This document shows, piece after piece, positions 1 through 34,963 of a stretch of DNA of 64,000 bases. Under the pieces are notes generated by a model. That model saw only the letters and a list, made by a program, of their open reading frames with translations, searched no databases and was not told the origin of the DNA. Both the position numbers and the translations under genes were made by a program. The stretch is taken from assembly GCA_029881035.1 (NCBI GenBank), contig JAOUNI010000004.1, positions 7,924 through 71,923 of the forward strand, in the 5' to 3' direction. Every line of letters starts with the position of its first letter. Position 1 is the first letter of the stretch. This DNA is from Gammaproteobacteria bacterium. GTDB taxonomy: Bacteria; Pseudomonadota; Gammaproteobacteria; SZUA-229.

Positions 1-789
1 GAAATGGGTACTCATGATGTTTGGCAAAGTTGGCGATAACAGCACCAAGTACCATCGAGGCAATTAAAAAAGATACGTTAAACCAGAGCGCCAGTCCACC
101 ACAGACAAAAACCAGTCCCAGGGCTTCCATTAATATAGGCTGCCCGGGCTTAATTCTTCCTGTTAAATAGGCTGATGGCAGGCCAAGCAATATGCCAAGA
201 AGAATCGCGCCGGTAATTTCTTTGGTCACTGATAGTAGTGGTGATAGATTGTCAGCATGCCCGTTAAATGTAGATACCAGTGCGATGCCGATAGCAAACA
301 ACATCAGGGCCCAGATATCATCAAGTGCAACAATAGAAAGCAGCATATTCTGGAATGGTGTTTTATCGTCAGATTCCATGACAACATCGAGAACAGCAGC
401 AGGCGCTGTGGCTGAGGCAAAGCAGCCTAATAAAATGGCGATTTCTTTTGCTGTGCCTAGCCAGATCAAGCCCAGGGTAACGATGATAGTTGTGATTATG
501 GCGGTGCTAAGGGAGATCCAGAGTACTTTACCTGCTGAGCATCTCAGGGAGTCCATGGTAAGTTTTCCACCTAGTAGAAAGCCGACCATAAGCAATGCCA
601 TATTGGCAAGAGTTTCAAAAAGATCAAAAAATACCGTTGGAATAATATCGAGCATTTCTTTGCCGATAATTATGCCAAATATTAATAGAAGAGTGACACG
701 CGGTAAAAAGGTGATGCGGCCAAGATGAGAAGTTACCAGGCCAAGTAGAAGAATGCCGCCAAGGGTTAAAAGAAACTGGGATGATTGCA
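1..789 (-). CDS. Cation:proton antiporter-like membrane protein, truncated at the window edge. The start codon is at 787-789 and only the N-terminal part lies in the window.
   Basis: I translated the minus strand by hand from ATG (complement of 787-789). The product reads MQSSQFLLTLGGILLLGLVTSHLGRITFLPRVTLLLIFGIIIGKEMLD... and stays open and hydrophobic to position 1. The N-terminus resembles Na+/H+ exchanger (CPA) family proteins. It is absent from the ORF track because it is edge-truncated, and the antisense ORF 192..728 is listed there instead. Confidence 0.5.
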
Positions 790-852
790 TGTTGAATTTT
801 GCCAATCAGTATCGGCGGTTAATTTCTGTGTTAAAAACATGGTAATACCTGC

Positions 853-3309
853 TTATGTTTTAATCGTCTGCAAAATATTGTTGCGCATTTCTTTACTTAA
901 TAACAATCGTGCGCGGCGGTCTACTTTCAGGAAGGCTTCATTGTATTCCAGATGTTCGTCATCAATGGATTTGAGGTAGTCGGAGTGGATCAGCGTTTCT
1001 ATGAAGTTTGAGATCAGGCGACGATCTGAAAAATCAGGTGCATTTAGTTCGTAGATCATAGCGATACGTTGTGCCATCAGGAAGCAGCTGTTTTCAAGTT
1101 CCGATCGAGGTACTTTTTTCTGGCCATCGCGTAATAGTATTGAAACGGTCAGGTAATAAACTTCGAGTACGGGTGAAATGGTTCTGGCCAGCATGTTCAG
1201 ATGCATATAGGTTGGGTTACCGGAGGCTGGCCGAGTATATACATCTAGCTGTTCGTTTTTTATTAGCAGTTCATGATGCGCCATAGCGTCGAGCATGATG
1301 GTGACAATATCAGCGAGCTCGTGTTCTTCCCAGATTAGGAATAGTTCGGCTTTAACATATGGGTAAGCCAGCGAGATGATGTTGATAATTTCTTCTCGGG
1401 TGTGGGTGCGCATGTTCAGGAAGCAACAGGCGATGAGCGAAGGCATCGCCATCAGATGCAAGATGTTGTTTCTGTAATAGGTCATTGAGATGGATTGTTT
1501 TGCATCTAGAAAAATAATATCACCCAGATCATGGTGGCGCCGCTGAATCATTTTGAGCTTTTCTGCATATTTAATTTGTTCTTTGCCATTTAGTTCGGTG
1601 ATGGTTATATCTTTTGAGAAATTCAGCGAACGAATTAATTGTTTGTAGATATCAATAGTTTGAGCTAGCGCTCTTTCATCAATATGTTGTTTGGGCGTTG
1701 AAAGTAAAGCGGTGGCAATGAGATTTGTTGGATTAACAGCAGTGGCACGATTAATGTTTCGACTTATAGTCTGCGCAAGATGTCGAATGCAGTCTCTTAA
1801 CCACTTCGGACGAGTATTGTCGTTATAGGCTTCTTTATCCCAGTTCGGATGTTTTTCATGCAGCAGTTGATCAAGAATAATCGGCTCCCCAAAACTGGTA
1901 TATACCTTGCCGAAGTTGCCACGGATTTTAAAAATAGATGTAATAGTGGTGATGAGAGTTTCAGATTTTTTGTCCTGGCCTAATAGTTCAGCCTGATAGG
2001 CTTTGCTTTCCATGAGTTTTTCGTAACCAATATAAACAGGAATAAATGCAATAGGTAGTTTTCGTTCTTTAAGAAAGGCGCGTACGGTCATGGAGAGCAT
2101 GCCGGGCATGGGTTTTAATAAACGTCCTGTGCGACTGCGCCCGCCTTCAATAAAATACTCAATGGGCATGCCGGTGGCTAACAGGGTTGAAATATATTCG
2201 AACATCAGGGTTGAATAAAGCTCGTTACCACGGAAGCTCCGGCGTATAAAAAAAGCACCCGCGCCCCGAAGTATGGAGCCTATGACAGGCATGTTTAGGT
2301 TTTTACCGGCCGCAATGTAAGGAATGGCCAGTCCCTCACGGTGAATTACGTAGGACAATAACAAATAATCGATATGGCTACGATGACAGGGCACATAGAC
2401 CAGTTCATGAGTGTGTGAGAGTACGCCGAGTTCTTCACTGTTGCTGACTTCAATACCAGAATAAAATTTGTTCCAGAACGTGGTTAGTAGTCGCTGTAAA
2501 ATTGAAATAGTAATGTTAGTGCAGTCAGCGACTATTTCGTAGAGATAACGTTGTGCCTGTAGAGAGGCTTTGTATTCGCTGATGCCATCTTCGCTGCAGC
2601 GTTTATTAATGGCCGTCTTAACGTTGGGTTTGAGTAACAAATCACGAACCAGCGTACGGCGATGTGAGATATCAGGCCCAAGGGTGGCAGTTTTGATTAT
2701 TTTTTGATGATTAGATAACAGTGCTTGCAGTGAATCGATCACTTCGTCGTTAGTTTTATCATTGAAGTCCGAAGCTTTGATGGTAATGGCTTTGGAGAAA
2801 TTGAGCAGAGTATCGCGGCCATGAAAAAGTATGGTTAGTAACTTACGGCTGGGACCCATCGCCCAGGCATCAGCGAATAACATATCCAGCCAGTTTTTTT
2901 GCTTGGCGACGGGGCGACCCCAGAAGACGGAAACAGGGACGAATTGTAATTGGTCTTCGGGGTGATCACGTAATAGTTCGACAATGCCACGAATCATGCG
3001 CGAGCGCTTGGGTTGTTTTTTTAGCCACGCTTTAAAGGGTTGGCGTGGTGCAATGGTGTAAACCGAGTGCCAGCGTTCCAGGTAAGGTGAGGCAATAGGG
3101 TCAAGCGGTGAGGTAAGGCCGAGGCGTGAGCATTCCTGATTAAGTACCAGTAGACTGGACCAGGCACGGTCATCCAGTACATAGACTACAGGCCATTCCG
3201 GGTTAATACCAAGAGCATCAATGATCTCTGGTCTGCTACGTACTTTTATTACTGAGCCTAATACTCGACCAGCAATTGAGTTAAAAAAACGCCTGATACG
3301 CATCATCAC
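853..3309 (-). CDS. plsB: Glycerol-3-phosphate O-acyltransferase PlsB
   Basis: 818 aa, the length of PlsB. It contains the acyltransferase HX4D motif (VPCHRSHIDYLLL) and the downstream FIEGGRSRTGRLL block typical of PlsB. Confidence 0.9.
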   Translation of the reverse strand: MMMRIRRFFNSIAGRVLGSVIKVRSRPEIIDALGINPEWPVVYVLDDRAWSSLLVLNQECSRLGLTSPLDPIASPYLERWHSVYTIAPRQPFKAWLKKQPKRSRMIRGIVELLRDHPEDQLQFVPVSVFWGRPVAKQKNWLDMLFADAWAMGPSRKLLTILFHGRDTLLNFSKAITIKASDFNDKTNDEVIDSLQALLSNHQKIIKTATLGPDISHRRTLVRDLLLKPNVKTAINKRCSEDGISEYKASLQAQRYLYEIVADCTNITISILQRLLTTFWNKFYSGIEVSNSEELGVLSHTHELVYVPCHRSHIDYLLLSYVIHREGLAIPYIAAGKNLNMPVIGSILRGAGAFFIRRSFRGNELYSTLMFEYISTLLATGMPIEYFIEGGRSRTGRLLKPMPGMLSMTVRAFLKERKLPIAFIPVYIGYEKLMESKAYQAELLGQDKKSETLITTITSIFKIRGNFGKVYTSFGEPIILDQLLHEKHPNWDKEAYNDNTRPKWLRDCIRHLAQTISRNINRATAVNPTNLIATALLSTPKQHIDERALAQTIDIYKQLIRSLNFSKDITITELNGKEQIKYAEKLKMIQRRHHDLGDIIFLDAKQSISMTYYRNNILHLMAMPSLIACCFLNMRTHTREEIINIISLAYPYVKAELFLIWEEHELADIVTIMLDAMAHHELLIKNEQLDVYTRPASGNPTYMHLNMLARTISPVLEVYYLTVSILLRDGQKKVPRSELENSCFLMAQRIAMIYELNAPDFSDRRLISNFIETLIHSDYLKSIDDEHLEYNEAFLKVDRRARLLLSKEMRNNILQTIKT

Positions 3310-3405
3310 AAAAAATCCATATATTAATCAATATTTGGGATAACCATAGCACGATGGCATATGGTGTCTAGCCCGAAAAGGGCAATTTTAAAGATTTATA
3401 ATGCA

Positions 3406-4899
3406 TCATAAATGCTGCTGAATGGGTAGTAGTGAATAGATAATTTTGGCGATGCGCTGCCATAGGTTACGAGCTGGTTGTAAGGTAATGATTTCGTCTT
3501 TGCTCTGCCAGATAAGTTTGCCCCGTTCATTGTATTTAACCTGCCAGAATTTACCTCTATCGAGATCTTCAATAAAGGCCTTCTGTACGGCACTTGTAAG
3601 GTCGGCATTGTGAACGAACAGACCAATCTCGGTATTAAGACATTCAGATCTTGGGTCGAGGTTAAGAGAGCCGACATAGACAGAATCATCATCATAGATA
3701 ATCGACTTCGCGTGCAAGCTTAGGTAGTCAATATTAATGGTCGAGGCTGAATAAGTGGAATGGTATTTCGGTTCAGCCCTAAATTCAAATAGCTCTACGC
3801 CCATAATAAGTAATTGATGACGATAACGTTCGTACCCAGTAAAAACAGGGGTGACATCTATGGACGCCAGTGAATTGGTCAGTACGCGAATATGTACACC
3901 ATTGTTGAGCAATGTTTGTAACGATGCGATGAGAGCTTTACTGGGTATGAAGTAGGCGCTGATAATAGTCAGTTGATTTTTTGTTTGAATGTTTTTTTGA
4001 TAAAGATCATGTGCCATATGATTTTTTTCGATGGAACTGGTATTTGGGATATCATAAAAAATCTGTGCTTTAGCAGCGATTAAATTATTTTTTAATTCTG
4101 GATTGTTGAGTAGATCATTTTTGACAGCATCAATGCGACGAATTGACTGTTGTGATAAAACTAAATTGTTGTTAAGGCGTTTCAACATATAACGGTAATT
4201 AATGCGGCGGGGACGGAATGCGATTAGACGTCGAGCAGTTTTTGATTGTGAGCTGTTCCAGAAGAGGTCAAAGCTGTCAGAAAGTTTCTTGACAGCAACG
4301 CCAGAGACAAGTAAATCAAGATCACGAAATACAAAGGATTTGTTAAGGCCAAAAAATTCGTCACCAATGTTACGTCCACCAATAATTGATGATACATTGT
4401 CAGCAATAAGTAACTTATTATGCATGCGATGATTGAGACGATTTAGGTTCCAGAGTAATTCAAAAGTTTGAAAGAACCGGCTTGACCAACGTCTTTTGAA
4501 TGGATTAAAAATACGCACTTCAATATTATTATGGCGATTAAGTGTAGCAATACGGCGATCTGTGCCTAGGGTATGAATATCATCAAGCAATAGCCGTACC
4601 CGTACACCACGGTCTGCAGCTTCAATTAGTTTACTGATTAGCCACTGGCCTGAAACGTCGGTATGCCAGCTATAGTATTGTGCATCGATACTATATTTCG
4701 CCTGTTCAATCAGCGCGATACGCCATGCGAGGGCTTCATCGTTTTTGTGCAGGGCGAGAAATTTAGCAGGGTATTCGGAAAGAGGTGTTTGCTGGTCGAT
4801 ATTGGTTTCTGTAATGCCAAAGAGCTGCGCCAGTGGTGCAGAGTAATCTGGTGGTATGGCATAGCTGGAATTTTGTTTTATAGGTAAGCGCATAGTCAT
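3406..4899 (-). CDS. Phospholipase D family protein (cardiolipin-synthase-like) with two HKD motifs
   Basis: Two HxK(x)4D-type motifs are present (HNKLLIADN and HAKSIIYDDD) in a 497-aa protein. The overlapping 99-aa ORF 3396..3695 is discounted. Confidence 0.7.
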   Translation of the reverse strand: MTMRLPIKQNSSYAIPPDYSAPLAQLFGITETNIDQQTPLSEYPAKFLALHKNDEALAWRIALIEQAKYSIDAQYYSWHTDVSGQWLISKLIEAADRGVRVRLLLDDIHTLGTDRRIATLNRHNNIEVRIFNPFKRRWSSRFFQTFELLWNLNRLNHRMHNKLLIADNVSSIIGGRNIGDEFFGLNKSFVFRDLDLLVSGVAVKKLSDSFDLFWNSSQSKTARRLIAFRPRRINYRYMLKRLNNNLVLSQQSIRRIDAVKNDLLNNPELKNNLIAAKAQIFYDIPNTSSIEKNHMAHDLYQKNIQTKNQLTIISAYFIPSKALIASLQTLLNNGVHIRVLTNSLASIDVTPVFTGYERYRHQLLIMGVELFEFRAEPKYHSTYSASTINIDYLSLHAKSIIYDDDSVYVGSLNLDPRSECLNTEIGLFVHNADLTSAVQKAFIEDLDRGKFWQVKYNERGKLIWQSKDEIITLQPARNLWQRIAKIIYSLLPIQQHL

Positions 4900-5002
4900 A
4901 GATTAGTACAAATAGGCACAGCAGATGTAAGAATAAGATAATCGGAAGAGAGTATATCGACGGGCTTAAGACATAAGCACTGTTTAAATAAAACCAAGTA
5001 TA

Positions 5003-5434
5003 TTAACTGGCAGTAAATACATCCGGCAGCTTTTTAGTCAGCCGCGATTTAATCTCTTCGACATTTTTATTCTGATAAGCCTGTTTGCCATCAGCACCCC
5101 AGACAACCCCAGGCCAGCAATAGTCATCAACATGTCGTCCGACAATATGAATATGCATTTGATTGACGATATTACCGATGGCAGCAATATTAAGTTTGTC
5201 GACAGCAAAGTTTTGTTTCATGTGATTAGAAATAATGTTAATTTCTTCCAGTAACTCAAGTTGCTGATCATGGGGTAGTTCATAAATTTCAGTAGCCACG
5301 GTATCCGGTACCAGAATAAACCAGGGCACCAGAGAATTATTGAGGAGTAATAATTGACTGGTTTTAAGCTGGCCAAGCACGAAGCAATCATTGGCGAGTC
5401 GAGGATCAAGCTTTAAGATTTGTGAAGTGTTCAT
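5003..5434 (-). CDS. HIT-family hydrolase
   Basis: The histidine-triad motif NQMHIHIVGR (HxHxHxx) lies near the C-terminus of a 143-aa protein. Confidence 0.75.
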   Translation of the reverse strand: MNTSQILKLDPRLANDCFVLGQLKTSQLLLLNNSLVPWFILVPDTVATEIYELPHDQQLELLEEINIISNHMKQNFAVDKLNIAAIGNIVNQMHIHIVGRHVDDYCWPGVVWGADGKQAYQNKNVEEIKSRLTKKLPDVFTAS

Positions 5435-5736
5435 TGAAGATCTTTTATAGGTTGAACCAGAACCCAGGGTTTAACCACAACAGCCCAGACAGTGGCATCG
5501 TTGTTATACCATTCTTTAGCTTGTTGATCAGGCACTAGCATTAATAGTTGTTCCTGCATCCATTTTTCAACCATGGCTTTGTTATCGTTTATAAAACAGG
5601 TTGCGACCTCGATCAGATCTAACTCAGCAGAAACGTAAACAGCCATACCGCTGGCAAAAAAGTATTGCAGTTCATGCCAGGCAATTTTAGAAGTTTCTCC
5701 GACAAGCTGTTGTTTGACATGATCTATATCAGTCAT
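5431..5736 (-). CDS. Hypothetical protein (small, conserved-looking)
   Basis: 101-aa ORF. It overlaps the stop of the upstream gene and its own stop overlaps the HIT gene start by 4 nt, which suggests an operon. No recognisable motif. Confidence 0.4.
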   Translation of the reverse strand: MTDIDHVKQQLVGETSKIAWHELQYFFASGMAVYVSAELDLIEVATCFINDNKAMVEKWMQEQLLMLVPDQQAKEWYNNDATVWAVVVKPWVLVQPIKDLQ

Positions 5737-6134
5737 GATTGTTGGCCAAGTTTATAGGCTTCGATTAAAGCTGTTTTAAGTACCGGTTCAGTATCCAGGT
5801 CATCGATGGATAAAATGCTGCGAGCGACACCGGATACGGCCTCAATAACATTTTGTTCGTGTAAGGCCCGTTCAAAAGCATCAATGTTAAATGTGCCTTC
5901 ACTAAGGAAAGATTTTGCCAGTCCTTTAGCGTCGGAGAAAACCAGATTTTCTGCCTGCAATATTTCATATTCATAAGAATAAAGATCAATGTTATTGCTC
6001 CTTGCTAACTGAGGGTAGAGAGACTGCAGGTCATTTTTTGATTGTATGTGGGCATCTAGATCTATGACCATGGAGGGAGAAAGCTTTTGACCTTTAAAAA
6101 AGAATTCTACGCTAATGACAATGCTATTTTTCAT
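5733..6134 (-). CDS. Hypothetical protein
   Basis: 133-aa ORF in a tail-to-head arrangement with the two downstream genes. Coding-like composition. No motif recognised. Confidence 0.4.
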   Translation of the reverse strand: MKNSIVISVEFFFKGQKLSPSMVIDLDAHIQSKNDLQSLYPQLARSNNIDLYSYEYEILQAENLVFSDAKGLAKSFLSEGTFNIDAFERALHEQNVIEAVSGVARSILSIDDLDTEPVLKTALIEAYKLGQQS

Positions 6135-7739: not shown

Positions 7740-9059
7740 TTAATCCAGCTGTTCAAGCTTCCTGTATAAAGTGCGTTCACTTACACCGAGTTTTTTTGCC
7801 AGTTCCGTCTTATTATCAATACGCTGTATAGCCCATTCTAAATAACGTTTTTCCAGTTCTTTTAGGCTAATTAAATCTGAAAAACAGGCTTTATCATTGT
7901 TATCAGTTTCAATGATACATTCATCAGGTAGATGATGGCTTTCTATAATATCGCCATCAGCCATCAAAGTGGCGCGTTGTACAATATTACATAGCTCGCG
8001 AATATTTCCCGGGAAAGGATATTGCTGAAGTTGTTGCAAAGCCGATTCAGACATGCTCATTTCTAAATCAGGGTAAAACCGCTTTAGCATGGATTCAACT
8101 AATAAAGGAATATCTTCTGTTCGTTCTCTTAATGCAGGTAGATGTAGCGGAAAGGCGCTGATGCGGTAATAAAGATCTTTTCTAAATTCACCTTTATCAA
8201 CCATCACACTTAAATTTCTATGCGTAGCAGAGACCAAACGAAAGTTGGCTTTTAAAGATTCTATGCCACCGACCCGTCTGAATGAGCCGGTCTCCATTAA
8301 GCGTAATAACTTTGTTTGTAAATTGAGTGGAATATCGCCGGTTTCGTCTAAAAATAATGTGCCACCACTGGCGGCTTCAACCAGGCCGATTTTACGAGAT
8401 TGTGCGCCAGTGAAAGAACCTTTTTCATGTCCAAACAATTCGCTTTCAAATAATGTTTCAGTCAGGCCTGAACAGTCTACTGCTACGAATGGGCCTTTGG
8501 CCCGACGGCTGGCTTTGTGAATGGCTTCAGCTACCAGCTCTTTGCCTGTGCCTGATTCGCCCTGAAGTAAAACACTGACATCACTACAGGCTACCCTCTG
8601 CACCATTTCAATAACGGTATTAAAAGCAATCGAGCGCCCCACCAGGCCTTCAGCTTGTGGTCTGGTGCTGGCACATTTAACCGAGGCCATGGTTTCCAGA
8701 AAAAACTTGATCTCACCATTTTCATCATGGATGGGGCTGAGTTGGACATCTACGTGTTCTTCGCCAAATTCGGTATGGTGGACGTGTAAGGAACGTTGTG
8801 CGGTGTTGCTTTCAAGACAGAGTTTTAACGGACAGGTCTCGCCTTCCTGGTCACAGGATTTTTTATAATGATGTGATATTTCGTAACAGTGGCTCTTCCC
8901 ATCCACTTTAAAACCATATTGTTTTTGATAGGCCTCATTGGCAGCCACAATGATGTAATCCCTGCCCATTAATATTGCTGGATTACTATAGCTATTGAGC
9001 AGATCATCGATAAATTTGCCATCATCAAGGCACTTTTTCAAAGTTTCTTCTGGGGACAT
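7740..9059 (-). CDS. Sigma-54-dependent transcriptional activator with an N-terminal sensory (PAS-like, Cys-rich) domain. Candidate sulfide-responsive regulator of the divergent sqr gene.
   Basis: AAA+ sigma-54 interaction domain is present (GESGTGKE Walker A, GAFTGA-like FTGA loop, [10 protein letters not shown]) together with a C-terminal HTH. It is divergent from sqr across a sigma-54 promoter. Confidence 0.8.
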
Positions 9060-9095
9060 AAGTTAGTTGATCCTGTTGATGGCTAATTTAGTATT

Positions 9096-9131
9096 GTCAT
9101 TTATGACAAAGAATCTTGTCATAAATGACGT
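9096..9131. promoter_or_regulatory. Two TGTCA-N4-TGACA-type inverted repeats (TGTCATTTATGACA at 9096-9109 and TGTCATAAATGACg at 9118-9131). Candidate upstream activator sites for the adjacent sigma-54 regulator.
   Basis: Read directly from the sequence. They lie ~100-130 bp upstream of the sigma-54 promoter at 9227-9241, the usual position of enhancer sites. Confidence 0.45.
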
Positions 9132-9226
9132 ATTTGTCATAGTGTTTCTGTATATTTCATTTCCGATTTGGTTCCAGTAAAAAATAAATAACCATATCCT
9201 ATTGTTTTCATTGTTGTTTCAAGAGC

Positions 9227-9242
9227 TGGCCTGAGCCTTGCT
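9227..9242 (+). promoter_or_regulatory. Sigma-54 (-24/-12) promoter for sqr
   Basis: TGGCCTG-AGCC-TTGCT matches the consensus TGGCACG-N4-TTGC with exact GG/GC spacing. It sits ~40 nt upstream of the sqr ATG at 9281. Confidence 0.6.
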
Positions 9243-9280
9243 TAAAGGACATGACTAAATAATATTGATGAGGAAAAAGC

Positions 9281-10552
9281 ATGGCACATATCGTAATAAT
9301 AGGAGCAGGGGTAGGCGGCTTACCCTGTGCTTATGAAATGAGGGAAACTCTGGATAAAGAACATCAGATCTCCGTTATTAATGAACGGGACCATTTTCAA
9401 TTTACGCCCTCAAATCCCTGGGTGGCTGTTGGCTGGCGTACCCAGAAAAATATATCTGTTGCCCTATCGCCGGTGCTGGCTAAAAAAGGCATTAACTTTA
9501 TTCAGGATCGTGTAATTAAGATTGATGCTGAAAATAATACGCTGCAATTAAAAGATGGTAATGCAGTTAAGTATGACTATCTGGTGATTACCACAGGCCC
9601 TAGACTGGCTTTTGAAGAAGTGCCGGGTTCTGGTCCTGAAGGCTTCACGACATCCATTTGCACCACCGAACATGCGGTGGATGCCCTCGACGATTTCAAT
9701 AAACTGATTGAGAATCCGGGTCCTGTAATTATTGGTGCTATGCCTTTTGCCAGTTGTTTTGGTCCTGCTTATGAATTTGCCTTTATTCTTGATTGTGTTC
9801 TGCGTAAAAAACGCATGCGCAGTAAAGTACCAATGACATTTGTAACTTCAGAGCCGTATATTGGCCATCTGGGTCTAGGTGGAGTCGGTGACTCCAGAGG
9901 AATGCTGGAAAGTGATTTGCGTAAGCACCATATAAAATTCATCACAAATGCAAAAACGACCAAAGTTGAAGATGGTATGATGTTCGTTGATGAAATGGAT
10001 GATGCTGGTAATATTAAAAAACAACATGAGCTGCCTTTTAATTACTCAATGATGCTACCGGCATTTAAAGGTGTTGATGCTGTTGCTGAGGTTGAAGGAT
10101 TGTGTAACCCGCGTGGCTTTGTTTTGATTGATGAATACCAGCGCAATCCAAAATATCTGAATATTTATTCCGCTGGTGTATGTGTTGCGATTCCTCCAGT
10201 TGAAGCCACACCAGTGCCAACCGGCGCACCTAAAACGGGTTATATGATTGAATCTATGGCAACTGCGATTGTGCATAATATTGCTCATGAACTGGTTGGT
10301 GAAGAACCGGAAAAATGTGGTACCTGGAATGCTATTTGTCTGGCTGACATGGGTGACACCGGTGCTGCATTCGTGGCACTACCACAAATTCCTCCACGTA
10401 ATGTAACCTGGTTCAAAAAAGGAAAATGGGTGCATCAGGCAAAAATTGGTTTTGAAAAATACTTCATACGTAAGATGAAAAAAGGAAGCACAGATCCTAT
10501 GTACGAGCGCTTTATTCTTAAAATGCTGGGAATTAATAAACTGGAAAAGTAA
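9281..10552 (+). CDS. sqr: Sulfide:quinone oxidoreductase (type I SQR, FAD-dependent)
   Basis: 423 aa with an N-terminal IIGAGVGG FAD-binding fingerprint. Long colinear blocks (FQFTPSNPWVAVGW, GPAYEFA, TSEPYIGHLG, MLPAFKGV, EGLCNPRGFVLIDE, APKTGYMIESM, FEKYFIRKMK) match my recollection of characterised bacterial SQRs. Confidence 0.85.
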   Translation: MAHIVIIGAGVGGLPCAYEMRETLDKEHQISVINERDHFQFTPSNPWVAVGWRTQKNISVALSPVLAKKGINFIQDRVIKIDAENNTLQLKDGNAVKYDYLVITTGPRLAFEEVPGSGPEGFTTSICTTEHAVDALDDFNKLIENPGPVIIGAMPFASCFGPAYEFAFILDCVLRKKRMRSKVPMTFVTSEPYIGHLGLGGVGDSRGMLESDLRKHHIKFITNAKTTKVEDGMMFVDEMDDAGNIKKQHELPFNYSMMLPAFKGVDAVAEVEGLCNPRGFVLIDEYQRNPKYLNIYSAGVCVAIPPVEATPVPTGAPKTGYMIESMATAIVHNIAHELVGEEPEKCGTWNAICLADMGDTGAAFVALPQIPPRNVTWFKKGKWVHQAKIGFEKYFIRKMKKGSTDPMYERFILKMLGINKLEK

Positions 10553-10698: not shown

Positions 10699-11088
10699 AT
10701 GAGAAGTATAAAAGCCATTGCTGCAGGTAGTTTATTTATTATTATTATTATTCTGTTAATGCAGCTGGCTTATATTTTTATAGCGGTAGCTTATAATGCC
10801 CTGGCAAAAGACTACCCATTGTTAAATGATATTGCGGGCTCATTTAGATACCTTATTGGCATACCAATATTTATGGTGATTATGTTTTTCGGCGGTTACA
10901 TTACCGCCGATATTGCTAGAGAAAAAGTACTGCTGCATTGTTTTGTTGTGGGTTTAATTACGGTTAGCGGTATGGTTATTCCAACACTGGAAAATGCAAA
11001 TATAACCTTGATGGGCTTCATGGTGTTTGTGCTTTCAATAGTGGCAACGACGTTTGGTGGTTGGTATTGGCAAAGAAGTAATAAATGA
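10699..11088 (+). CDS. Hypothetical small membrane protein (3-4 predicted TM helices)
   Basis: 129-aa ORF that is strongly hydrophobic. No motif recognised. Confidence 0.4.
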   Translation: MRSIKAIAAGSLFIIIIILLMQLAYIFIAVAYNALAKDYPLLNDIAGSFRYLIGIPIFMVIMFFGGYITADIAREKVLLHCFVVGLITVSGMVIPTLENANITLMGFMVFVLSIVATTFGGWYWQRSNK

Positions 11089-11128
11089 AAGGACGGGTAA
11101 TGCCGGGACTAAGGGAGTGTGTGAGAAA

Positions 11129-11440
11129 TCAATAATGAACAGCTAGCCAGATTGTTTCAATATTTGGCGCAGTCCATTCGACTTGGTGTTTTTTGTGCGC
11201 AGAAATATTAATAAAATCACCTGCTTTCAGTTTAATAGAGGGCTCATCTGCAAATGATAGTATCGCTTCGCCCTGTAAAACAATAACCCATTCGTTGTTG
11301 TTCTGATCGTACCAGCCAGAGTCAGTGGAATGATGGCCTTTTGAGATAATGCGCTCAATTCGTACGCCATTACCTTCAGCAAGTCGTTCAAATACTTCCG
11401 CTTCAAGATTTTCGGGAATAGCATCGAATATATTATTCAT
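11129..11440 (-). CDS. Cupin-domain protein
   Basis: 103 aa with a two-His cupin-like block (KGHHSTDSGW ... SAHKKHQVEW). Confidence 0.5.
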   Translation of the reverse strand: MNNIFDAIPENLEAEVFERLAEGNGVRIERIISKGHHSTDSGWYDQNNNEWVIVLQGEAILSFADEPSIKLKAGDFINISAHKKHQVEWTAPNIETIWLAVHY

Positions 11441-11499
11441 AAGATTTCAGCACTTTATGATTCTGGATTATAGAAAAGGCGCGTTTCTATAAATGTGAT

Positions 11500-11976
11500 T
11501 TATTTCTGTACTGCTTCTATACCTTCATCGATTGCTTTAATGACTAAAGTGGTCAGTTCACGTGCTACTGGTTCAGCATCGCTACCAATCGCAATTGAGT
11601 CTGGCCGTACAAAGTTGATAGAGGTCTGGCCATTACGCTGAATTAGTGTGATATGTAACGGGCACAGCGCAGTCATGCGCACATCTTTGTTGCTGATCTC
11701 ATTTGCATACCATGCATTACAGAAGACCATCGATTTAATATGATCAAGTTTGTTACGGTTATAATTGTCGCCCCAGCGTTCTGTAAAATTAGCTAGATTA
11801 GAACCAATGTCTGGTTGAAAGACAACAAACAGTCGGTTGTTTTCTAGCGAATCGTGTACATTTTGGTAAATTGTATCGAAATCGCCTTGAACCGATGCGG
11901 TATATACCGGTGAGTCAGCATAGATCTCAAAGTTAAAAAAGAGCGCAACAATGAAAGCGAATAAAAATTTGTGCAT
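11500..11976 (-). CDS. Hypothetical secreted protein
   Basis: 158 aa with an N-terminal signal-peptide-like segment (MHKFLFAFIVALFFNFEIYA). Confidence 0.4.
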   Translation of the reverse strand: MHKFLFAFIVALFFNFEIYADSPVYTASVQGDFDTIYQNVHDSLENNRLFVVFQPDIGSNLANFTERWGDNYNRNKLDHIKSMVFCNAWYANEISNKDVRMTALCPLHITLIQRNGQTSINFVRPDSIAIGSDAEPVARELTTLVIKAIDEGIEAVQK

Positions 11977-24942: not shown

Positions 24943-25686
24943 TCAGCTAGTCTTCATGAGTTTACGTAGGCTCAATCCAATAAGGCCTGCACCTAACAAG
25001 GCCAAAATGCCTGGTTCTGGAATAGTCCACTCTGCATCGTGTGAATAAGGTGCCACGCTATTAACAAGAAATTTATTTGTAGTTAAATTTGTCGGATCCC
25101 ACTGGGCGCCAGTAACAGTAAACAGGTCAAAATGGAGTCCTACTACATCTTCAAGTATTGAATTTATGGTTATGTCGAAAGACTCAGTATATCCGGAGCC
25201 TGTGTCTGTATTTCCGGGTTCCGTATTCCCAATAGTGCTGATAGCGCCATCGAACTGGAATTCATAGATTTCAAAATAGGTGTCAAAAATTGAATGTGAA
25301 GCGATGCTATTGGGGTCTTGAACCGGTGGGGTGCCGTATCCAGAGCTTACCAGTGAGGCACCACTAATTGAAATATCGAATCCATCAATATTGCCTATAT
25401 CAGGCATAGTAGCCACTGTCAGGTATGCATAACGACTACTGGCGCCAGCACTGTCCCAGGCAAAAGAGCCTTTAGGGTTAGTGCAGCCTGTTGCACCTGA
25501 TTCACAGTTAGCATATGCAAACAGCTCAAAGGTATTCGTACCTGAAACAACCCATGTGTCAGGTGTGCCACCACTGTAGTTCCAGTTAGCTGAACCGTCG
25601 CCGCCAAGCTGCAGACTCGGCAAAGCGTTAACAGTCACAGCACAAGTTGAAAATATAGATATTAATAATAATTGTAATAACTTCAT
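24943..25686 (-). CDS. PEP-CTERM sorting-domain protein (secreted)
   Basis: Signal peptide is present. The C-terminus IPEPGILALLGAGLIGLSLRKLMKTS matches the PEP motif + TM helix + basic tail of the PEP-CTERM signal. Confidence 0.85.
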   Translation of the reverse strand: MKLLQLLLISIFSTCAVTVNALPSLQLGGDGSANWNYSGGTPDTWVVSGTNTFELFAYANCESGATGCTNPKGSFAWDSAGASSRYAYLTVATMPDIGNIDGFDISISGASLVSSGYGTPPVQDPNSIASHSIFDTYFEIYEFQFDGAISTIGNTEPGNTDTGSGYTESFDITINSILEDVVGLHFDLFTVTGAQWDPTNLTTNKFLVNSVAPYSHDAEWTIPEPGILALLGAGLIGLSLRKLMKTS

Positions 25687-25758
25687 GTCAAATCTCCTAT
25701 ATAAGTCTCAGTTGAAACGTCATTGAAAGCACGTTCAAGTATTCTTACTTAATTGAAA

Positions 25759-25773
25759 GCAATATATATGCCA
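25759..25773 (-). promoter_or_regulatory. Sigma-54 promoter for the PEP-CTERM gene 24943..25686
   Basis: Minus strand reads TGGCATA-TATA-TTGC with correct GG-N10-GC spacing. It is ~73 nt upstream of the ATG. Confidence 0.5.
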
Positions 25774-25889
25774 ATCATAGTTATAAAAAAAGATTACTGA
25801 TAATTATGTTTATTTTCAATAGATTATATTTATTTGTCTTGTAAGAGCAAAATCTTTTTTATCAAGATTAGAGAGGTTTTATTTAAAAT

Positions 25890-25906
25890 TGTAAATATTA
25901 GTGACA
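25890..25906 (+). promoter_or_regulatory. Candidate enhancer or PEP-CTERM-box motif copy A (TGTAAATATTAGTGACA)
   Basis: One of five related 17-mers found only upstream of PEP-CTERM gene promoters in this window. It is 117-133 bp upstream of the -24 element. Confidence 0.4.
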
Positions 25907-26176
25907 GGCTCAGCGGGCTTTATGCAGATAATTAAAAAATGAGAGTTAATAGTTTATGTCTATATTGAAAAATAAATGCGATAAAACAAGTTGTTATGTG
26001 TGTATTGTATGGGACAAATAGGTTTCTAAAGTTAGTCAGTTAGTTGATAGTATTTTATACATTAGATTATGAATTATTTACATAAGATGGATGGATAGAA
26101 GAGCTAATTAGTTCTATATCAATCAATATGTTATTGATGAATATATTGCAAATAGGTTCAAGTTTATTAGTAAAAC

Positions 26177-26193
26177 TGTAAATAATAGTGACA
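26177..26193 (+). promoter_or_regulatory. Candidate enhancer or PEP-CTERM-box motif copy B (TGTAAATAATAGTGACA)
   Basis: 16 of 17 positions are identical to copy A. It lies in the same AT-rich intergenic region between the PEP-CTERM gene and prsK. Confidence 0.35.
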
Positions 26194-26254
26194 CAAGATG
26201 TTAATGCTGCTATACAAGGATACATACTGTTAATTTGGATATAAATAAAAAATC

Positions 26255-28297
26255 ATGAACATGGGTTTGTATAGTTATCTTGGTGCCGCTATCGCCTACG
26301 GTTTTTTTACGCTGTTATTGTTTTTTAGTTGGCGAGGTAGTCTACAGGGTAAGTTGCTTACCATCGTTATCACAATCAGCACAATTTGGGCCGTTTTGGC
26401 AGTTGAAATTGCAATAGAAAATACCGATCAGGTGCAGATCTATCAGGTTTTTGAGGTCATGCGTTATATGGCCTGGTATATTTTTCTGCTTAAGTTATTT
26501 GATGTAGCTGTATCTCATGGAAGCGGTTACCAGAGATTCATAAGGTGGGCCTTGCCACTGAGTGTGTGTTTTGCTGTATTGGTTATGTTGAGTGAAACAT
26601 ATGTGGAACCAGGTCTTTCTGTTCTGAGTATTACTGGCCATGTGATCATGGCTCTTATTGGCCTGGCAATAATTGAGCAATTGTTTCGTAATACGTCGGT
26701 GCGACATCGATGGGCTATTAAATATCTATTTATAGGCGCGGGTTTTATATTTGCGTTTGATTTTTATTTTTATACAGATGCTTTGCTGTTTCGTGGTATT
26801 GATGCTGATCTGTGGGAAGCTCGGGGCATCATCAATGTGGTAGTAGTCCCTCTTTTGGCAATTTCAGCAGTTCGAAATAAAAGCTGGTCACTAAATATTT
26901 TTGTTTCTCGGGACATTGTCCTAAATACTACGGCAATTTTTGTTGGTGGTGTGTATTTACTGGTGATGGCGGGTGCTGGATATTATCTAAGAGAGTTCGG
27001 AGGAAGTTGGAGCAGAATAGGACAAGTATTGATCATATCTTTGTCAGTAGTACTGCTTGCATCAGTACTATCTTCAAGTATGTTGCGCGCAAAAATTAAA
27101 GTTTTTTTAAGCAAACATTTTTATAAAAATAAGTATGATTACCGTATTGAATGGCTGGGTTTGACTGAGAAGCTGAGTAGTAAGGCACAGAGTAAGGAGC
27201 GTTATAAGGTTGTAATTGAGGCTCTCGCTAATATTATTGATGCACGTGCAGGTTTGCTTTGGATAAGTGATGGCAAGGACGGATATAAAAATGTAGCTGC
27301 CTGGCAGACAATTTTAATCGATGAGGTCGAGCCAGTTAACGGTTCACTGGTTAGTTTTTTCCAGAGTAAGGGGTTCATTATTAACATTAGTGAGCTTGAT
27401 TTACACCCGGATGAATATGAAGGCTTAGTGTTACCTGAATGGTTGGCAGGAGTGAGGCAACCATGGCTGGTATTACCGCTACAGGGTCTGGAATCATTAA
27501 TGGGTTTTATTGTGTTGGCTAATCCATTGATAATTAGGCCAATTAACTGGGAAGATCGAGATTTGTTGATGACAGTAGGTAAACAGGTTTCCAGTTACCT
27601 GACGGTGTTAATGACATCCGATGAACTGGCGGAAGCTAAGCAGTTTGAAGTGTTTACCCGTTTATCAGCATACATGGTGCACGATTTAAAAAATGTTGTT
27701 TCTGAACTTGAAATGATATCAAGCAATTCTAAAAAACACATGGGCAATCCGGAGTTTATTGAGGATGCTTTTGATACGGTTGAAAATGCTGCAGGAGATA
27801 TAAAACGATTGCTGGAGCAATTACGAAATAAACAGGCTCAAGTAGAGAAAAAAAGTATTATTAATTTAGCTGTGTTGCTGCAGGAAGTCGTTAATAATAA
27901 ACAGGGTAAGTATCCACAGCCACATCTTAAGATAGCGTGTGAAACATGTGCTGTAGCGGTAGAGAAAAATCGGCTGATAAATGTACTGGCACATTTGATA
28001 GATAATGCACAGCAGGCCACTGAAGATGATGGTTATATTGATGTAACGGTATTGAATAATGAAACAATGTGTATTGTTGAAATAAAAGATAATGGTCATG
28101 GCATGGACGCAGACTTTATCAGAGATCGACTGTTTAAGCCTTTTGATACGACCAAAGGTAATGCAGGAATGGGAATAGGAATGTATGAAAGCAAGGAGTA
28201 CATGCAGCAACTCGGAGGTGATATACGTGTTAAGAGTGAAGCAGGAAAAGGGACTACAATTTCACTATATATTCCTGCAGACACTGAAGGGAAATAG
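26255..28297 (+). CDS. prsK: XrtA/PEP-CTERM system histidine kinase PrsK
   Basis: Multi-TM N-terminus and a central GAF-like domain. It carries a HisKA H-box (MVHDLKN) and HATPase_c N/G1/G2 boxes (DNAQQAT, DNGHGMD, GNAGMGIGMY). prsR lies immediately downstream. Confidence 0.85.
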   Translation: MNMGLYSYLGAAIAYGFFTLLLFFSWRGSLQGKLLTIVITISTIWAVLAVEIAIENTDQVQIYQVFEVMRYMAWYIFLLKLFDVAVSHGSGYQRFIRWALPLSVCFAVLVMLSETYVEPGLSVLSITGHVIMALIGLAIIEQLFRNTSVRHRWAIKYLFIGAGFIFAFDFYFYTDALLFRGIDADLWEARGIINVVVVPLLAISAVRNKSWSLNIFVSRDIVLNTTAIFVGGVYLLVMAGAGYYLREFGGSWSRIGQVLIISLSVVLLASVLSSSMLRAKIKVFLSKHFYKNKYDYRIEWLGLTEKLSSKAQSKERYKVVIEALANIIDARAGLLWISDGKDGYKNVAAWQTILIDEVEPVNGSLVSFFQSKGFIINISELDLHPDEYEGLVLPEWLAGVRQPWLVLPLQGLESLMGFIVLANPLIIRPINWEDRDLLMTVGKQVSSYLTVLMTSDELAEAKQFEVFTRLSAYMVHDLKNVVSELEMISSNSKKHMGNPEFIEDAFDTVENAAGDIKRLLEQLRNKQAQVEKKSIINLAVLLQEVVNNKQGKYPQPHLKIACETCAVAVEKNRLINVLAHLIDNAQQATEDDGYIDVTVLNNETMCIVEIKDNGHGMDADFIRDRLFKPFDTTKGNAGMGIGMYESKEYMQQLGGDIRVKSEAGKGTTISLYIPADTEGK

Positions 28298-28357
28298 ATG
28301 GTTGCAGGCATTTAATCTCAACTTAATTTGATAGTTTTAAGGATTTAAATTTCAGTT

Positions 28358-29722
28358 ATGACGGACAAAAAATTAAAGCCACTGATAGTGGTTGAAGATA
28401 ATCCAGGTATACAGAAGCAGCTTAAGTGGGCTTTTGAAGGCTATCAGGTATATATCGCGGGTGACAGGGCTTCAGCTGTGAAGTTGCTAAAGCAGCACAA
28501 GTCACCAGTGGTAACGTTAGATTTAGGATTGCCACCCGATCCGGCGAATGCCAGTGAGGGCCTGACTGCACTTGATGAAATTCTCAACATTGCACCACAT
28601 ACAAAAGTGATTGTAGTAACAGGCAATGATGATAGACAGAATGCTTTGAGGGCAATTGCACTGGGTGCGTATGATTTTTATCAAAAGCCTGTTGATCCTG
28701 AAATGCTTAGTTTGATAGTGGACCGGGCTTATAGATTGTATGAACTAGAAGAAGAAAACCGACAATTAGTTACGCAAGGTTCAGTTTCTGCATTGGATGG
28801 AATTATTGGTGCAAGTCAAAAAATGCTTGCTGCCTGTCGTATGGTAGAAAAAGTGGGGCCTTCAGAGGCTACTGCACTAGTGATCGGTGAAAGTGGCACA
28901 GGTAAAGAGTTGATTGCGAGAGCGCTACATCAGTTGAGTCCACGTGCCAAGGGCACATTTGTTGCTCTGAATTGTGCGGCCATTCCAGATAATCTACTCG
29001 AAAGTGAACTATTTGGTTACGAAAAAGGTGCTTTTACAGGCGCAGTGAAACAGACGCCTGGCAGGATTGAAGTGGCAAATGGAGGCACGATTTTTCTTGA
29101 TGAGATTGGTGATATGCCTATGCCGCTACAGGCTAAGATGCTGCGTTTTTTGCAGGAGCGTGTTATTGAACGTATTGGTGGTCGCGACACAATAGCAGTC
29201 GATGTGCGGATAATTTGTGCAACACATCGCAATTTAGGACAGTCAATAGAAGAGGGGTTATTTCGGGAAGATTTGTATTACCGCATTAGTGAAATTACAA
29301 TTGAAGCGCCACCATTGAGAGAACGTGAAAGCGATAAACTTTTGCTGGCACAAACTTTTCTGGACAAATTTAGCCAGAGTAGTGGCCGAAGTTTTCGCGG
29401 TTTTACGGATGGCGCAAGAGAGCAGATAGAAGCCTATGCGTGGCCCGGTAATGTGCGTGAACTGGAGAATAAAATAAAAAGAGCTGTAGTGTTGGCCGAG
29501 GGTAAAAGAATCTCTTCAGAGGATCTAGGTTTTGTTGAAAGAATTAAACCTTTGTCACTTGATCTTCGTGAGGCCAGAGAAGATGCTGAGCGTCAGGTTA
29601 TACAGCGTGCATTGGAGATACACGGAAATAATGTAACACACGCATCAGAATCCATGGGCATCAGTCGCCCATCTTTATATAAACTGGTTAAAAAATTAGG
29701 GATGCCGGAGCCGGGAAAATAG
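28358..29722 (+). CDS. prsR: PEP-CTERM-box response regulator PrsR (sigma-54-dependent, NtrC family)
   Basis: Receiver domain (phospho-accepting Asp in VVTLDLG), AAA+ sigma-54 domain ([24 protein letters not shown]), and a C-terminal Fis-type HTH. Confidence 0.85.
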   Translation: MTDKKLKPLIVVEDNPGIQKQLKWAFEGYQVYIAGDRASAVKLLKQHKSPVVTLDLGLPPDPANASEGLTALDEILNIAPHTKVIVVTGNDDRQNALRAIALGAYDFYQKPVDPEMLSLIVDRAYRLYELEEENRQLVTQGSVSALDGIIGASQKMLAACRMVEKVGPSEATALVIGESGTGKELIARALHQLSPRAKGTFVALNCAAIPDNLLESELFGYEKGAFTGAVKQTPGRIEVANGGTIFLDEIGDMPMPLQAKMLRFLQERVIERIGGRDTIAVDVRIICATHRNLGQSIEEGLFREDLYYRISEITIEAPPLRERESDKLLLAQTFLDKFSQSSGRSFRGFTDGAREQIEAYAWPGNVRELENKIKRAVVLAEGKRISSEDLGFVERIKPLSLDLREAREDAERQVIQRALEIHGNNVTHASESMGISRPSLYKLVKKLGMPEPGK

Positions 29723-31263: not shown

Positions 31264-31330
31264 ATGTATTGTTTTGATTTTTTAAGTAAATGTATAAATA
31301 CGATAATGAGAAAGATAATAAGGAGAAGTT

Positions 31331-34144: not shown

Positions 34145-34174
34145 TGGTCAGGCTCTACTTAAAAAATGCAAAAA

Positions 34175-34201
34175 AAAACCGCGCATTGCGCGGTTTTTTT
34201 A
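34175..34201. terminator. Bidirectional rho-independent terminator
   Basis: A8-CCGCGC-att-GCGCGG-T7, between the convergent prsT and PEP-CTERM genes. Confidence 0.65.
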
Positions 34202-34219
34202 TATGGCTTTTAGTTAGAC

Positions 34220-34801: not shown

Positions 34802-34885
34802 TTTAATTTCCCTGATTAGTTAAAAGTTAATATTGTCTCAAGCCGATTATTCAAATCATCAACATGATCCTTTGATGTATGTAAT

Positions 34886-34900
34886 GCAATTGACATGCCA
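34886..34900 (-). promoter_or_regulatory. Sigma-54 promoter for the PEP-CTERM gene 34220..34801
   Basis: Minus strand reads TGGCATG-TCAA-TTGC, a near-perfect match to TGGCACG-N4-TTGC. It is ~85 nt upstream of the ATG. Confidence 0.55.
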
Positions 34901-34963
34901 ACTCACCAAGTTATTGATATTACGAGATAAAGTATTATCTGGGGTTGCTTATTGATAGAGAAT

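Follow-up and report, generated by a model that had tools for sequence, protein, structure and literature searches.

FisR of Cupriavidus pinatubonensis JMP134 was reported by Li et al. in 2017 (Mol Microbiol 105:373), a study in which its third sensing cysteine is reportedly Cys71. For CpFisR, later papers that cite this study describe three conserved cysteines (PMC9495516, PMC9774590) and a tetrasulfide formed between Cys53 and Cys64 (PMC9495516), and another such paper describes a FisR ATPase activity that rises with sulfide-derived sulfur (PMC12170894). The Acinetobacter baumannii FisR (A1S_1707) is a sigma-54 activator transcribed divergently from pdo1-sqr-tauE-hsd, an sqr-containing operon induced by sulfide, and it functions without the Cupriavidus-type cysteines, which are missing from its regulatory domain (PMC7315123); the sensing chemistry gathered under the name FisR is therefore not uniform. 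SqrR/BigR (ArsR family) and CstR (CsoR family) likewise sense sulfane sulfur by forming cysteine polysulfide bridges and regulate sqr and pdo genes accordingly (PMC12170894, PMC13467558). These proteins are sigma-70 repressors with unrelated folds, whereas sigma-54 activation from an upstream enhancer is predicted for the locus described here. Finally, Desulfovibrio vulgaris OrpR combines a PAS-AAA+-HTH architecture with three gating PAS cysteines at a similar position, the two features by which we liken it to our regulator, but it is a redox-potential sensor with a [4Fe-4S] cluster, and its targets are the orp operons (PMC8359166).

We analyzed a 64,000-nucleotide stretch (the window) from an uncultured gammaproteobacterium of low GC content (41%), a host that sets the locus apart from its Cupriavidus counterpart. 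A regulator of 439 residues, a fisR-like sigma-54-dependent enhancer-binding protein with a PAS - AAA+ - HTH_8 arrangement, is encoded on the minus strand (7740-9059), and a type I sulfide:quinone oxidoreductase (SQR) of 423 residues is encoded divergently on the plus strand (9281-10552). The 221-nt gap between them contains a sigma-54 promoter and, further upstream, several TGNCA half-sites in an array. A first-pass annotation of the same DNA had placed a sigma-54 activator divergent from sqr, and we found both reading frames at exactly the coordinates it gave, with domains that agree. A two-gene, FisR-type sulfide-response module is probably what explains the locus, which is a further example, well built and ordinary, of a known circuit.

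The PAS sensory (R) domain of the regulator spans residues 22-125 (8685..8996, minus strand; PF08448 PAS_4, E 5.5e-9) and is followed by the sigma-54 interaction AAA+ domain at residues 139-305 (8145..8645, minus strand; PF00158 Sigma54_activat, E 2e-66), an AAA_lid_14 at residues 311-387 of the same minus-strand gene (Pfam) and a Fis-type HTH_8 DNA-binding domain at residues 399-437 (7749..7865, minus strand; PF02954, E 8.7e-9). The AAA+ domain carries Walker A (GESGTGKE) and Walker B (LFLDE) motifs, and its GAFTGA loop reads GSFTGA, in contrast to the GAFTGA of Cupriavidus. This succession of a regulatory domain, a sigma-54 AAA+ domain and a Fis-type HTH is that of the FisR family, including the R(PAS)-AAA+-HTH order of Cupriavidus FisR, and the AlphaFold2 model of the full-length protein (pLDDT 87.7) agrees with the layout. 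Foldseek searches with this model matched nothing beyond AAA+ cores from enhancer-binding proteins, among them FleQ and NtrC1, and a PAS-only model (pLDDT 90) retrieved only generic PAS/LOV folds with a TM of about 0.7. We rejected a generic NtrC-type or NifA-type identity because the NCBIfam equivalog hits fall far under their cutoffs and are confined to the AAA+ region.

Homology to FisR extends beyond the AAA+ core. BLASTP aligned 425 residues of the regulator with a C. metallidurans CH34 protein at 52% identity, starting at residue 21 and spanning the PAS domain, and a PAS-only tblastn search returned a Cupriavidus match at 43% identity (E 7e-27). The sensory domain is thus homologous to that of a regulator of a pdo-sqr operon, as the CH34 orthologue is divergent from PDO - type II SQR with TauE downstream; Paraburkholderia orthologues detected in the PAS-only scan adjoin MBL(PDO) - DUF442-SQR - TauE. 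In those genomes the target is a pdo - type II sqr operon that includes tauE or has it nearby, whereas here it is a lone type I SQR.

Homologues were collected with a full-length search, an exhaustive HMMER search and a PAS-motif genome scan. These replaced a word-indexed search with the N-terminal 143 residues alone, which returned one fragment and was dropped as insensitive. The FisR-type family so defined comprises about 600 sites in species-representative genomes, and the relatives of our regulator occur in sulfur oxidizers (Thioalkalispiraceae, Thiohalomonas, Thiohalophilus, Thermithiobacillus, Sulfuriferula and Chromatiaceae). The divergent type I sqr is kept by every relative that shares at least 73% identity and has a contig extending far enough, and the regulator-sqr pair is found together in differing genomic neighborhoods.

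The first-pass annotation had described the N-terminus of the regulator as cysteine-rich, and six cysteines indeed lie within its first 130 residues (C10, C58, C69, C76, C81 and C129). Three of them form the triad C58-x10-C69-x6-C76 (8832..8888 on the minus strand, from the translation), which encloses H63 and reproduces the C-x10-C-x6-C spacing of Cupriavidus FisR. C58, C69 and C76 are invariant among 119 relatives of 55-88% identity and align with C53, C64 and C71 of the C. metallidurans orthologue; the match to the published FisR is made through this congeneric protein, the residue numbering of which coincides with that of C. pinatubonensis FisR. The same alignment places the three conserved regulatory-domain cysteines of the FisR family in our regulator, which thereby differs from the A. 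baumannii protein. The FisR-type reading of the first-pass annotation is supported by the 52% full-length identity to C. metallidurans and by sensing cysteines that are both aligned and invariant, and these sequence relationships place the regulator in the Cupriavidus, cysteine-bearing FisR lineage.

The 119 relatives also share four invariant histidines near the triad (H63, H92, H94 and H102), a feature that the published cysteine-crosslink model, as we read the alignment, does not explain. A protein of the same architecture could instead hold a metal or Fe-S cofactor on the cysteine triad, with or without histidines, and report redox state, oxygen or metal-bound sulfide. Seven invariant potential ligands in about 45 residues (C58, H63, C69, C76, H92, H94 and H102) would suit such a site, and OrpR provides a precedent with its redox-sensitive [4Fe-4S] cluster held by PAS residues C52, C61 and C65 (PMC8359166). 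The PAS fold resembles cofactor-binding DosP and NifL, at a generic level only. Genomic context points the same way: many family members adjoin cydAB, ccoG-like or Rieske genes and have no gene for sulfide oxidation directly beside them, and multihaem cytochromes are also among the respiratory genes paired with the family, the signal of which could thus be broader than sulfide. Set against these observations, the cysteines of Cupriavidus FisR were reported to become bridged by sulfur when the protein was treated with sulfane sulfur, and sulfide induces its regulon (PMC9495516, PMC9774590, PMC12170894). Moreover, the cysteine spacing is 11/7 here and 9/4 in OrpR, and the substrate of the target enzyme is sulfide itself. 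We therefore consider a cofactor-based sensor unlikely. We also regard as unlikely the wider proposal that the triad belongs to an invariant Cys3-His4 set that binds a metal or Fe-S center, with a chemistry differing from thiol crosslinking, and that the family acts as a master switch of sulfide-tolerant respiration (sqr, pdo, cytochrome bd, ccoG-like and Rieske genes) through one TGNCA-N4-TGNCA operator.

The assignment of the sqr product to type I, made in the first-pass annotation, holds: the protein matches the SQR of Acidithiobacillus ferrooxidans (3SZ0/3T2Z) with an E value of 1.1e-168 in an end-to-end alignment (residues 2-422 against 5-428). More distant are the SQRs of Aquifex (E 4.9e-114) and Acidianus (3H8I, E 4.8e-23) and human type II SQOR (E 1.9e-14), and with 113.8 bits the protein falls below the NCBIfam type III cutoff of 525. 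Type I representatives are hence closer than those of types II, III or V, the types of the compared structures being assigned after the classification of Marcia et al. 2010. The FAD motif IIGAGVGG (GxGxxG type) occupies residues 5-12, and C127 (SICT), C159 (ASCFGP) and C353 (AICLADMG) align in the 3SZ0 comparison with the redox-active C128, C160 and C356 of the A. ferrooxidans enzyme, and are its catalytic-site cysteines' counterparts. The FAD motif and the three redox-active cysteines are common to the solved type I SQRs of A. ferrooxidans (3T2Z, 3SZ0) and Aquifex aeolicus (3HYV), from which the sequence reveals no structural or biochemical difference. On this evidence the product is a type I sulfide:quinone oxidoreductase, and sulfide-dependent quinone reduction is predicted. 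A Shine-Dalgarno sequence, GAGGA (9270..9274, plus strand), can be read 6 nt before the sqr ATG.

What the enzyme is for is a separate matter. The first-pass annotation had spoken of a detoxification regulon beside housekeeping genes. The flanking genes are indeed housekeeping or unrelated (pyruvate kinase, DUF2288, HIT, cupin, DUF302 and MlaC), whereas detoxification remains an assumption, since energy conservation could just as well be the role of a type I SQR. The circuit may accordingly be as we describe it and yet provide a sulfur-oxidizing lithotroph with a substrate-induced type I SQR that feeds the quinone pool, a purpose to which we give somewhat less than an even chance. The closest solved SQR homologues, from A. 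ferrooxidans and Aquifex, belong to chemolithotrophs, the regulator relatives come from sulfur oxidizers, and the detoxification partners pdo and tauE are absent from the window; conversely, sox, dsr, fcc and other lithotrophy genes were not found in the 64 kb either, and detoxification and energy roles can coexist. The pdo- and tauE-like genes that the first-pass annotation had proposed to seek downstream did not appear: when the whole window was searched by tblastn with PDO, type II SQR, TauE, rhodanese, MBL-like, CydA and Tll0287, none of them gave a match at E 1e-3 or better. Nor did scanning all six frames for the RpoN box locate an rpoN in the window. A terminator scan, the sole hit of which was the palindrome pair itself, detected no intrinsic terminator downstream of sqr. 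A 129-residue membrane protein encoded after sqr (10699-11088), with no family match, was considered as part of the module and excluded because its synteny is limited to three close relatives.

The divergent sulfide-oxidation gene is preceded by a -24/-12 promoter, TGGCCTGAGCCTTGCT (9227..9242, plus strand), which ends 38 nt before the ATG. Its GG (9228-9229) and GC (9240-9241) doublets are arranged as GG-N10-GC, its -12 box is TTGCT, and 10 of 12 specified positions match the consensus TGGCACG-N4-TTGCW that we used for scoring. The promoter had been called perfect; its presence and doublet spacing stand, but TGGCCTG departs from TGGCACG at two positions, which makes that word too strong. Across the 64-kb window, TGGC-N7-TTGCW occurs five times where 1.8 occurrences are expected, and four of the five are correctly oriented 38-84 nt 5' of a start codon. 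Three PEP-CTERM genes within the window carry near-consensus -24/-12 elements, and a PrsR enhancer-binding protein is also encoded there, both in keeping with sigma-54 use by this organism. The sqr promoter is retained as TGGCCTGA[AG]C[CA]TTGC in five close relatives and is conserved in the related loci L005-L010, with 75-94% identity across the six relatives compared. The doublet spacing, the gene downstream and candidate activator sites within the 80-150 nt expected further upstream together describe a sigma-54 promoter.

These candidate sites form an array of five TGNCA half-sites (9095-9139) comprising three upstream activating sequences (UAS), centered about 95-125 nt upstream of the promoter. 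Site 1, TGTCATTTATGACA (9095..9108), is a perfect palindrome that starts 132 nt upstream of the T of TGGC; site 2, TGTCATAAATGACG (9117..9130), lies at -110 and has one mismatch; and site 3, TGACGTATTTGTCA (9126..9139), lies at -101 and has a half-site in common with site 2. The first-pass annotation had listed two TGTCA-N4-TGACA palindromes at enhancer distance, of which the position and the first site are confirmed, whereas the second is imperfect; the overlapping third site, which is better conserved, had been missed. The only copy of the strict form TGNCAWWWWTGNCA in the 64 kb is the one here. In Cupriavidus, TGNCA-type half-sites likewise lie upstream of a -24/-12 promoter serving a divergent sulfide-oxidation gene, but that region has TGCCA repeats at other spacings in place of TGNCA-N4-TGNCA at -132/-110/-101.

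The phasing of the array is conserved along with its motif. Site 1 is found at exactly -132 in L005, L006, L007, L008, L010 and L081 and at -131 in L012, a site at -110 recurs in L005, L006 and L007, and sites at -101 are present in L005, L006, L007, L008 and L081, so that the distances of 132, 110 and 101 nt are kept in up to seven other loci. The 87-nt spacer between the palindromes and the promoter is merely 28-44% identical. Throughout the family, TGNCA-N4-TGNCA is found in 43 of 67 intergenic regions, against 0.3 expected from shuffles (>100-fold enrichment). A further block, TTGTTTTCATT (9202..9212), is conserved between the UAS and the promoter in an eight-locus alignment and is possibly a site for a DNA-bending protein; the strict IHF consensus has no match in the intergenic region, this block included.

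If the motifs had arisen by chance, an ordinary sigma-70 promoter would drive sqr and the adjacent activator would control other genes. The region holds 10 sigma-70-like hexamers, close to the 8.0 that chance would give, and the -24 box is off consensus. We nevertheless find this explanation highly improbable, given that promoter and palindromes persist, at exactly the same spacing, beside so divergent a spacer, that the palindrome motif is so strongly enriched in the family and that regulator and sqr move jointly among genomic neighborhoods. The divergent gene, promoter and candidate activator sites characteristic of FisR are thus conserved in related loci, and at this level of comparison across species the structural elements of the circuit, none of which is missing here, show themselves to be under selection.

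For the FisR-type module, we infer by homology the response to sulfide, the cysteine chemistry, the gating of the ATPase, the dependence on rpoN and the binding of DNA at the palindromes. An oligomer of the regulator would occupy the half-site array at 9095-9139, approximately 100-130 nt upstream of the promoter at 9227-9242. Sulfane sulfur derived from incoming sulfide, as persulfide or polysulfide, would react with C58, C69 and C76 to produce di- or tetrasulfide links, and the linked PAS cysteines would lift the inhibition that the PAS domain exerts on the AAA+ ATPase. Through its GSFTGA loop and DNA looping, the ATPase would then remodel the closed sigma-54 holoenzyme complex and allow sqr transcription. 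The type I SQR would convert sulfide into sulfane sulfur and pass the electrons to quinone, and its action may clear sulfide while reinforcing the signal until sulfide is exhausted.

The locus adds an environmental gammaproteobacterial case to a regulator class characterized in Cupriavidus and Acinetobacter, and its architecture suggests that a lone type I SQR can be under FisR-type control. Together, the 221-nt control region and the regulator might be used as a compact expression part that sulfide induces. The family-wide operator motif and the strictly phased enhancer-promoter geometry allow regulons to be predicted in hundreds of genomes, and the cytochrome bd, ccoG-like and Rieske target operons suggest that the sensor may rewire respiration under sulfide.

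The regulator–sqr locus is a FisR-type sigma-54 circuit, a known kind, comprising two divergent genes whose coordinates agree exactly with those of the first-pass annotation: a minus-strand regulator gene (7740-9059, 439 aa) and sqr on the plus strand (9281-10552, 423 aa), separated by 221 nt. Pfam searches place in the regulator a PAS fold at residues 22-125, a sigma-54 interaction AAA+ domain at 139-305 (E 2e-66), an AAA lid and, at 399-437, a Fis-type HTH. The Walker A (GESGTGKE) and Walker B (LFLDE) motifs are both intact, the loop contacting sigma-54 reads GSFTGA, and AF2 modelled it confidently, with a pLDDT of 87.7 for the full-length protein and 90 for the PAS domain alone. The plus-strand product is predicted to be a type I SQR, and it aligns best, and over its whole length, with the Acidithiobacillus ferrooxidans sulfide:quinone reductase of known crystal structure (E 1.1e-168), followed by the Aquifex enzyme (E 4.9e-114) and, much more weakly, by Acidianus SQR (4.8e-23) and human SQOR (1.9e-14). 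The FAD motif is present and C127, C159 and C353 lie opposite the redox cysteines of the A. ferrooxidans enzyme.

An identical regulator occurs in a 'Gammaproteobacteria bacterium' MAG, and more than 100 full-length relatives share 55-88% identity with it. In an alignment of 119 full-length relatives, seven PAS-domain residues are invariant (C58, C69, C76, H63, H92, H94 and H102 in 119/119) and H64, C81 and H95 are conserved in most; this Cys/His region (residues 58-102) is encoded at 8757-8888 on the minus strand. The PAS motif PCD[QL][AE]GExCP has at least 600 matches in species-representative genomes, and an exhaustive HMMER search yielded 283 clusters at 50% identity with E 1e-10 or better. 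Some hits come from Paraburkholderia loci, where genes for an MBL-fold persulfide dioxygenase (PDO), a DUF442-SQR fusion and TauE are divergent from the regulator gene; a further copy, on the C. metallidurans CH34 chromid, is transcribed divergently from PDO and type II SQR genes that are followed downstream by TauE. Numbered from its MDRPTT start, the C. metallidurans orthologue has C53, C64 and C71 aligned with C58, C69 and C76 of the window protein, to which it is 52% identical from residue 21 to the end. Publications on C. pinatubonensis FisR (CpFisR) number its cysteines in the same way. This identity and the aligned cysteine triad place the window protein, as judged from sequence, in the Cupriavidus-type FisR lineage, and thereby support its original designation as a FisR-type regulator.

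According to published accounts, the three conserved cysteines are the sensing residues of CpFisR (PMC9774590), a Cys53-Cys64 tetrasulfide forms upon sulfane-sulfur treatment (PMC9495516), and the response is increased ATPase activity (PMC12170894); a same-named A. baumannii protein lacks the CpFisR cysteines (PMC7315123). The published model invokes cysteines only and leaves the invariant histidines beside the triad unexplained. They suggest that the domain has either a metal or cofactor site not recognised so far or a catalytic function in persulfide chemistry. OrpR, a PAS-AAA+-HTH activator in which three cysteines of the PAS domain hold a [4Fe-4S] cluster (PMC8359166), provides a precedent for a cofactor-based sensor, and a PAS domain reading its signal through a metal or an iron-sulfur centre is accordingly conceivable, if unlikely. 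Foldseek searches with the PAS model returned the generic PAS fold only.

Upstream of sqr, a putative sigma-54 -24/-12 promoter lies at 9227-9242 on the plus strand (TGGCCTGAGCCTTGCT); its obligatory GG and GC doublets are separated by 10 nt, and its -12 box is good. Described initially as perfect, the element is there, but its -24 part, TGGCCTG, departs from the consensus TGGCACG, so that we regard it as good rather than perfect. Between its end and the ATG are 38 nt, which contain a GAGGA Shine-Dalgarno sequence. The pattern TGGC-N7-TTGCW occurs five times in the 64-kb window (1.8 expected), and four of these five matches lie directly upstream of genes in the correct orientation.

Two TGTCA-N4-TGACA palindromes had been proposed as upstream sites; that at 9095-9108 (TGTCATTTATGACA) is indeed perfect, but that at 9117-9130 (TGTCATAAATGACG) carries one mismatch. 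A third site at 9126-9139 (TGACGTATTTGTCA) shares a half-site with the second, giving five TGNCA pentamers in the region, and the strict motif TGNCAWWWWTGNCA occurs in the 64-kb window solely in this operator region. The palindromes start exactly 132, 110 and 101 nt from the T of TGGC, distances shared by as many as seven other loci, one of them with a regulator of just 56% identity. Among loci, identity reaches 75-94% in the promoter and 58-73% in the operator block, whereas the 87-nt spacer separating the two has an ungapped identity of just 28-44%, which is near random. Among close relatives, the intergenic regions align in three stretches, namely the palindromes, a short block TTGTTTTYATT and the promoter, TGGCCTGA[AG]C[CA]TTGC, and align poorly elsewhere. 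Family-wide, 43 of the 67 divergent intergenic regions contain TGNCA-N4-TGNCA, against 0.3 in shuffled controls, and an array of TGCCA/TGGCA half-sites likewise precedes C. metallidurans pdo. That promoter and palindromes arose by chance is, given these comparative data, effectively excluded. Conservation, spacing and enrichment together provide strong comparative evidence that the palindromes are the activator's binding sites, and the exact spacing kept across a diverged spacer shows, at the level of sequence comparison, that the helical phase between palindromes and promoter is important. A weak sigma-70-like match (ATGACA-18-GACAAT, 9/12) lies on the regulator's strand at 9093-9122, overlapping sites 1 and 2, where it would permit the regulator gene to be autoregulated; matches of this kind are about as frequent as chance predicts in the surrounding AT-rich region.

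We called and clustered ORFs in 84 comparative loci. Every relative with 73% identity or more and a contig that extends across the region carries a divergent type I sqr. The pair has differing neighbourhoods in different genomes, and the unit therefore consists of the two genes and their 221-nt control region. Pyruvate kinase, DUF2288, HIT, PlsB and cardiolipin-synthase-like genes flank it on one side, and genes for a small membrane protein, cupin, DUF302, MlaC, a decarboxylase and an ABC transporter on the other. The pdo/tauE-like genes that the first-pass annotation had suggested seeking downstream are missing: PDO, TauE, rhodanese, type II SQR and cytochrome bd genes are absent from the entire 64-kb window. 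No intrinsic terminator was detected 3' of sqr. The stretch 10699-11976 encodes a 129-aa multi-pass membrane protein without a family match, a Nif11-type cupin (103 aa) and a DUF302 protein; synteny with sqr is confined to the closest relatives (membrane protein in L007, L008 and L010, cupin in L007 and L008, DUF302 in L007).

The locus thus stands as first described, with minor corrections and its interpretation supported. Its anatomy, conservation and orthology are directly observed, and it differs from characterised FisR systems in targeting a lone type I sqr and in its environmental gammaproteobacterial host. The proposed sqr circuit is upheld, but its assignment to sulfide detoxification was assumed: substrate-induced energy conservation is indicated equally by type I SQRs and by the taxa with close regulator relatives, and we give it somewhat less than an even chance.

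The FisR mechanism is probably the right model for the locus and the best supported. The activator would be bound constitutively at the upstream sites; sulfane sulfur derived from sulfide would modify the cysteine triad, freeing the AAA+ ring from PAS inhibition, and the ring, driven by ATP hydrolysis, would remodel the sigma-54 holoenzyme and switch sqr on. We infer signal, chemistry and rpoN dependence by homology. rpoN is absent from the 64-kb window. The organism plainly appears to use sigma-54, since near-consensus -24/-12 elements (TGGCAT-N5-TTGCW) at 25758-25773(-), 34885-34900(-) and 40035-40050(+) precede by 60-84 nt three small PEP-CTERM protein genes at 24943-25686(-), 34220-34801(-) and 40110-40730(+), with their cognate pair, the kinase PrsK (26255-28297) and the sigma-54 activator PrsR (28358-29722), encoded nearby. 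They belong to an XrtA/PEP-CTERM exosortase locus (24943-43813) that includes XrtA (29722-31263), two PrsT TPR lipoproteins and a chain-length determinant, and that looks like a PrsR/sigma-54 regulon seen within a single window.

Other family members face different genes. Sixteen related loci pair the regulator with a divergent cytochrome bd operon (CydA, CydB, YbgE/YbgT), as in L003 (Thermithiobacillus plumbiphilus, 1-5830), L017-L019, L024, L036, L049, L057, L062-L064, L068, L075 and L080; several operons add an MBL-like protein, rhodanese, truncated globin and SQR-like flavoprotein, with a -24/-12 promoter in front. This arrangement suggests that sulfide-insensitive respiration may be under direct FisR-type control; our literature search found no paper tying FisR directly to cytochrome bd operons. 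Many of these operons begin with a gene for a ~220-240-aa protein (e.g. L036 7152-7874(-), L003 5165-5830(-)) that BLAST-clusters with true MBL-fold persulfide dioxygenases, has no Pfam match and apparently lacks the HxHxDH metal motif, and that may be a degenerate PDO-like protein. A CcoG/FixG-like ferredoxin gene (Fer4_18 and FixG_C) is divergent from the regulator in 29 loci, including those of Rhodocyclaceae (Azonexus, Dechloromonas; L025-L034, L039, L043, L047-L051, L054, L056, L066, L069, L072, L076), several of which, such as L030, L039, L047, L054, L056 and L066, have a conserved AGGCYTGCTTNATGCA-like element (GG-N10-GC) 60-70 nt upstream. A Rieske (PetA-like) gene is the partner in 10 further loci. 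An obvious paired target is not found for every member: in Thiohalomonas denitrificans (L001, 4819-8402), a full-length member of 59% identity is flanked by Ku/LigD and by an unannotated 358-aa gene that overlaps its stop codon, with no sulfide or respiratory gene nearby.

The greater interest of the circuit lies at the family level, in the common operator, the strict enhancer-promoter phasing, the unexplained invariant histidines and the alternative target operons. These targets (cydAB with rhodanese and globin, ccoG-like, Rieske and Tll0287-like genes) suggest that the family may have a wider role in sulfide-adapted respiration.
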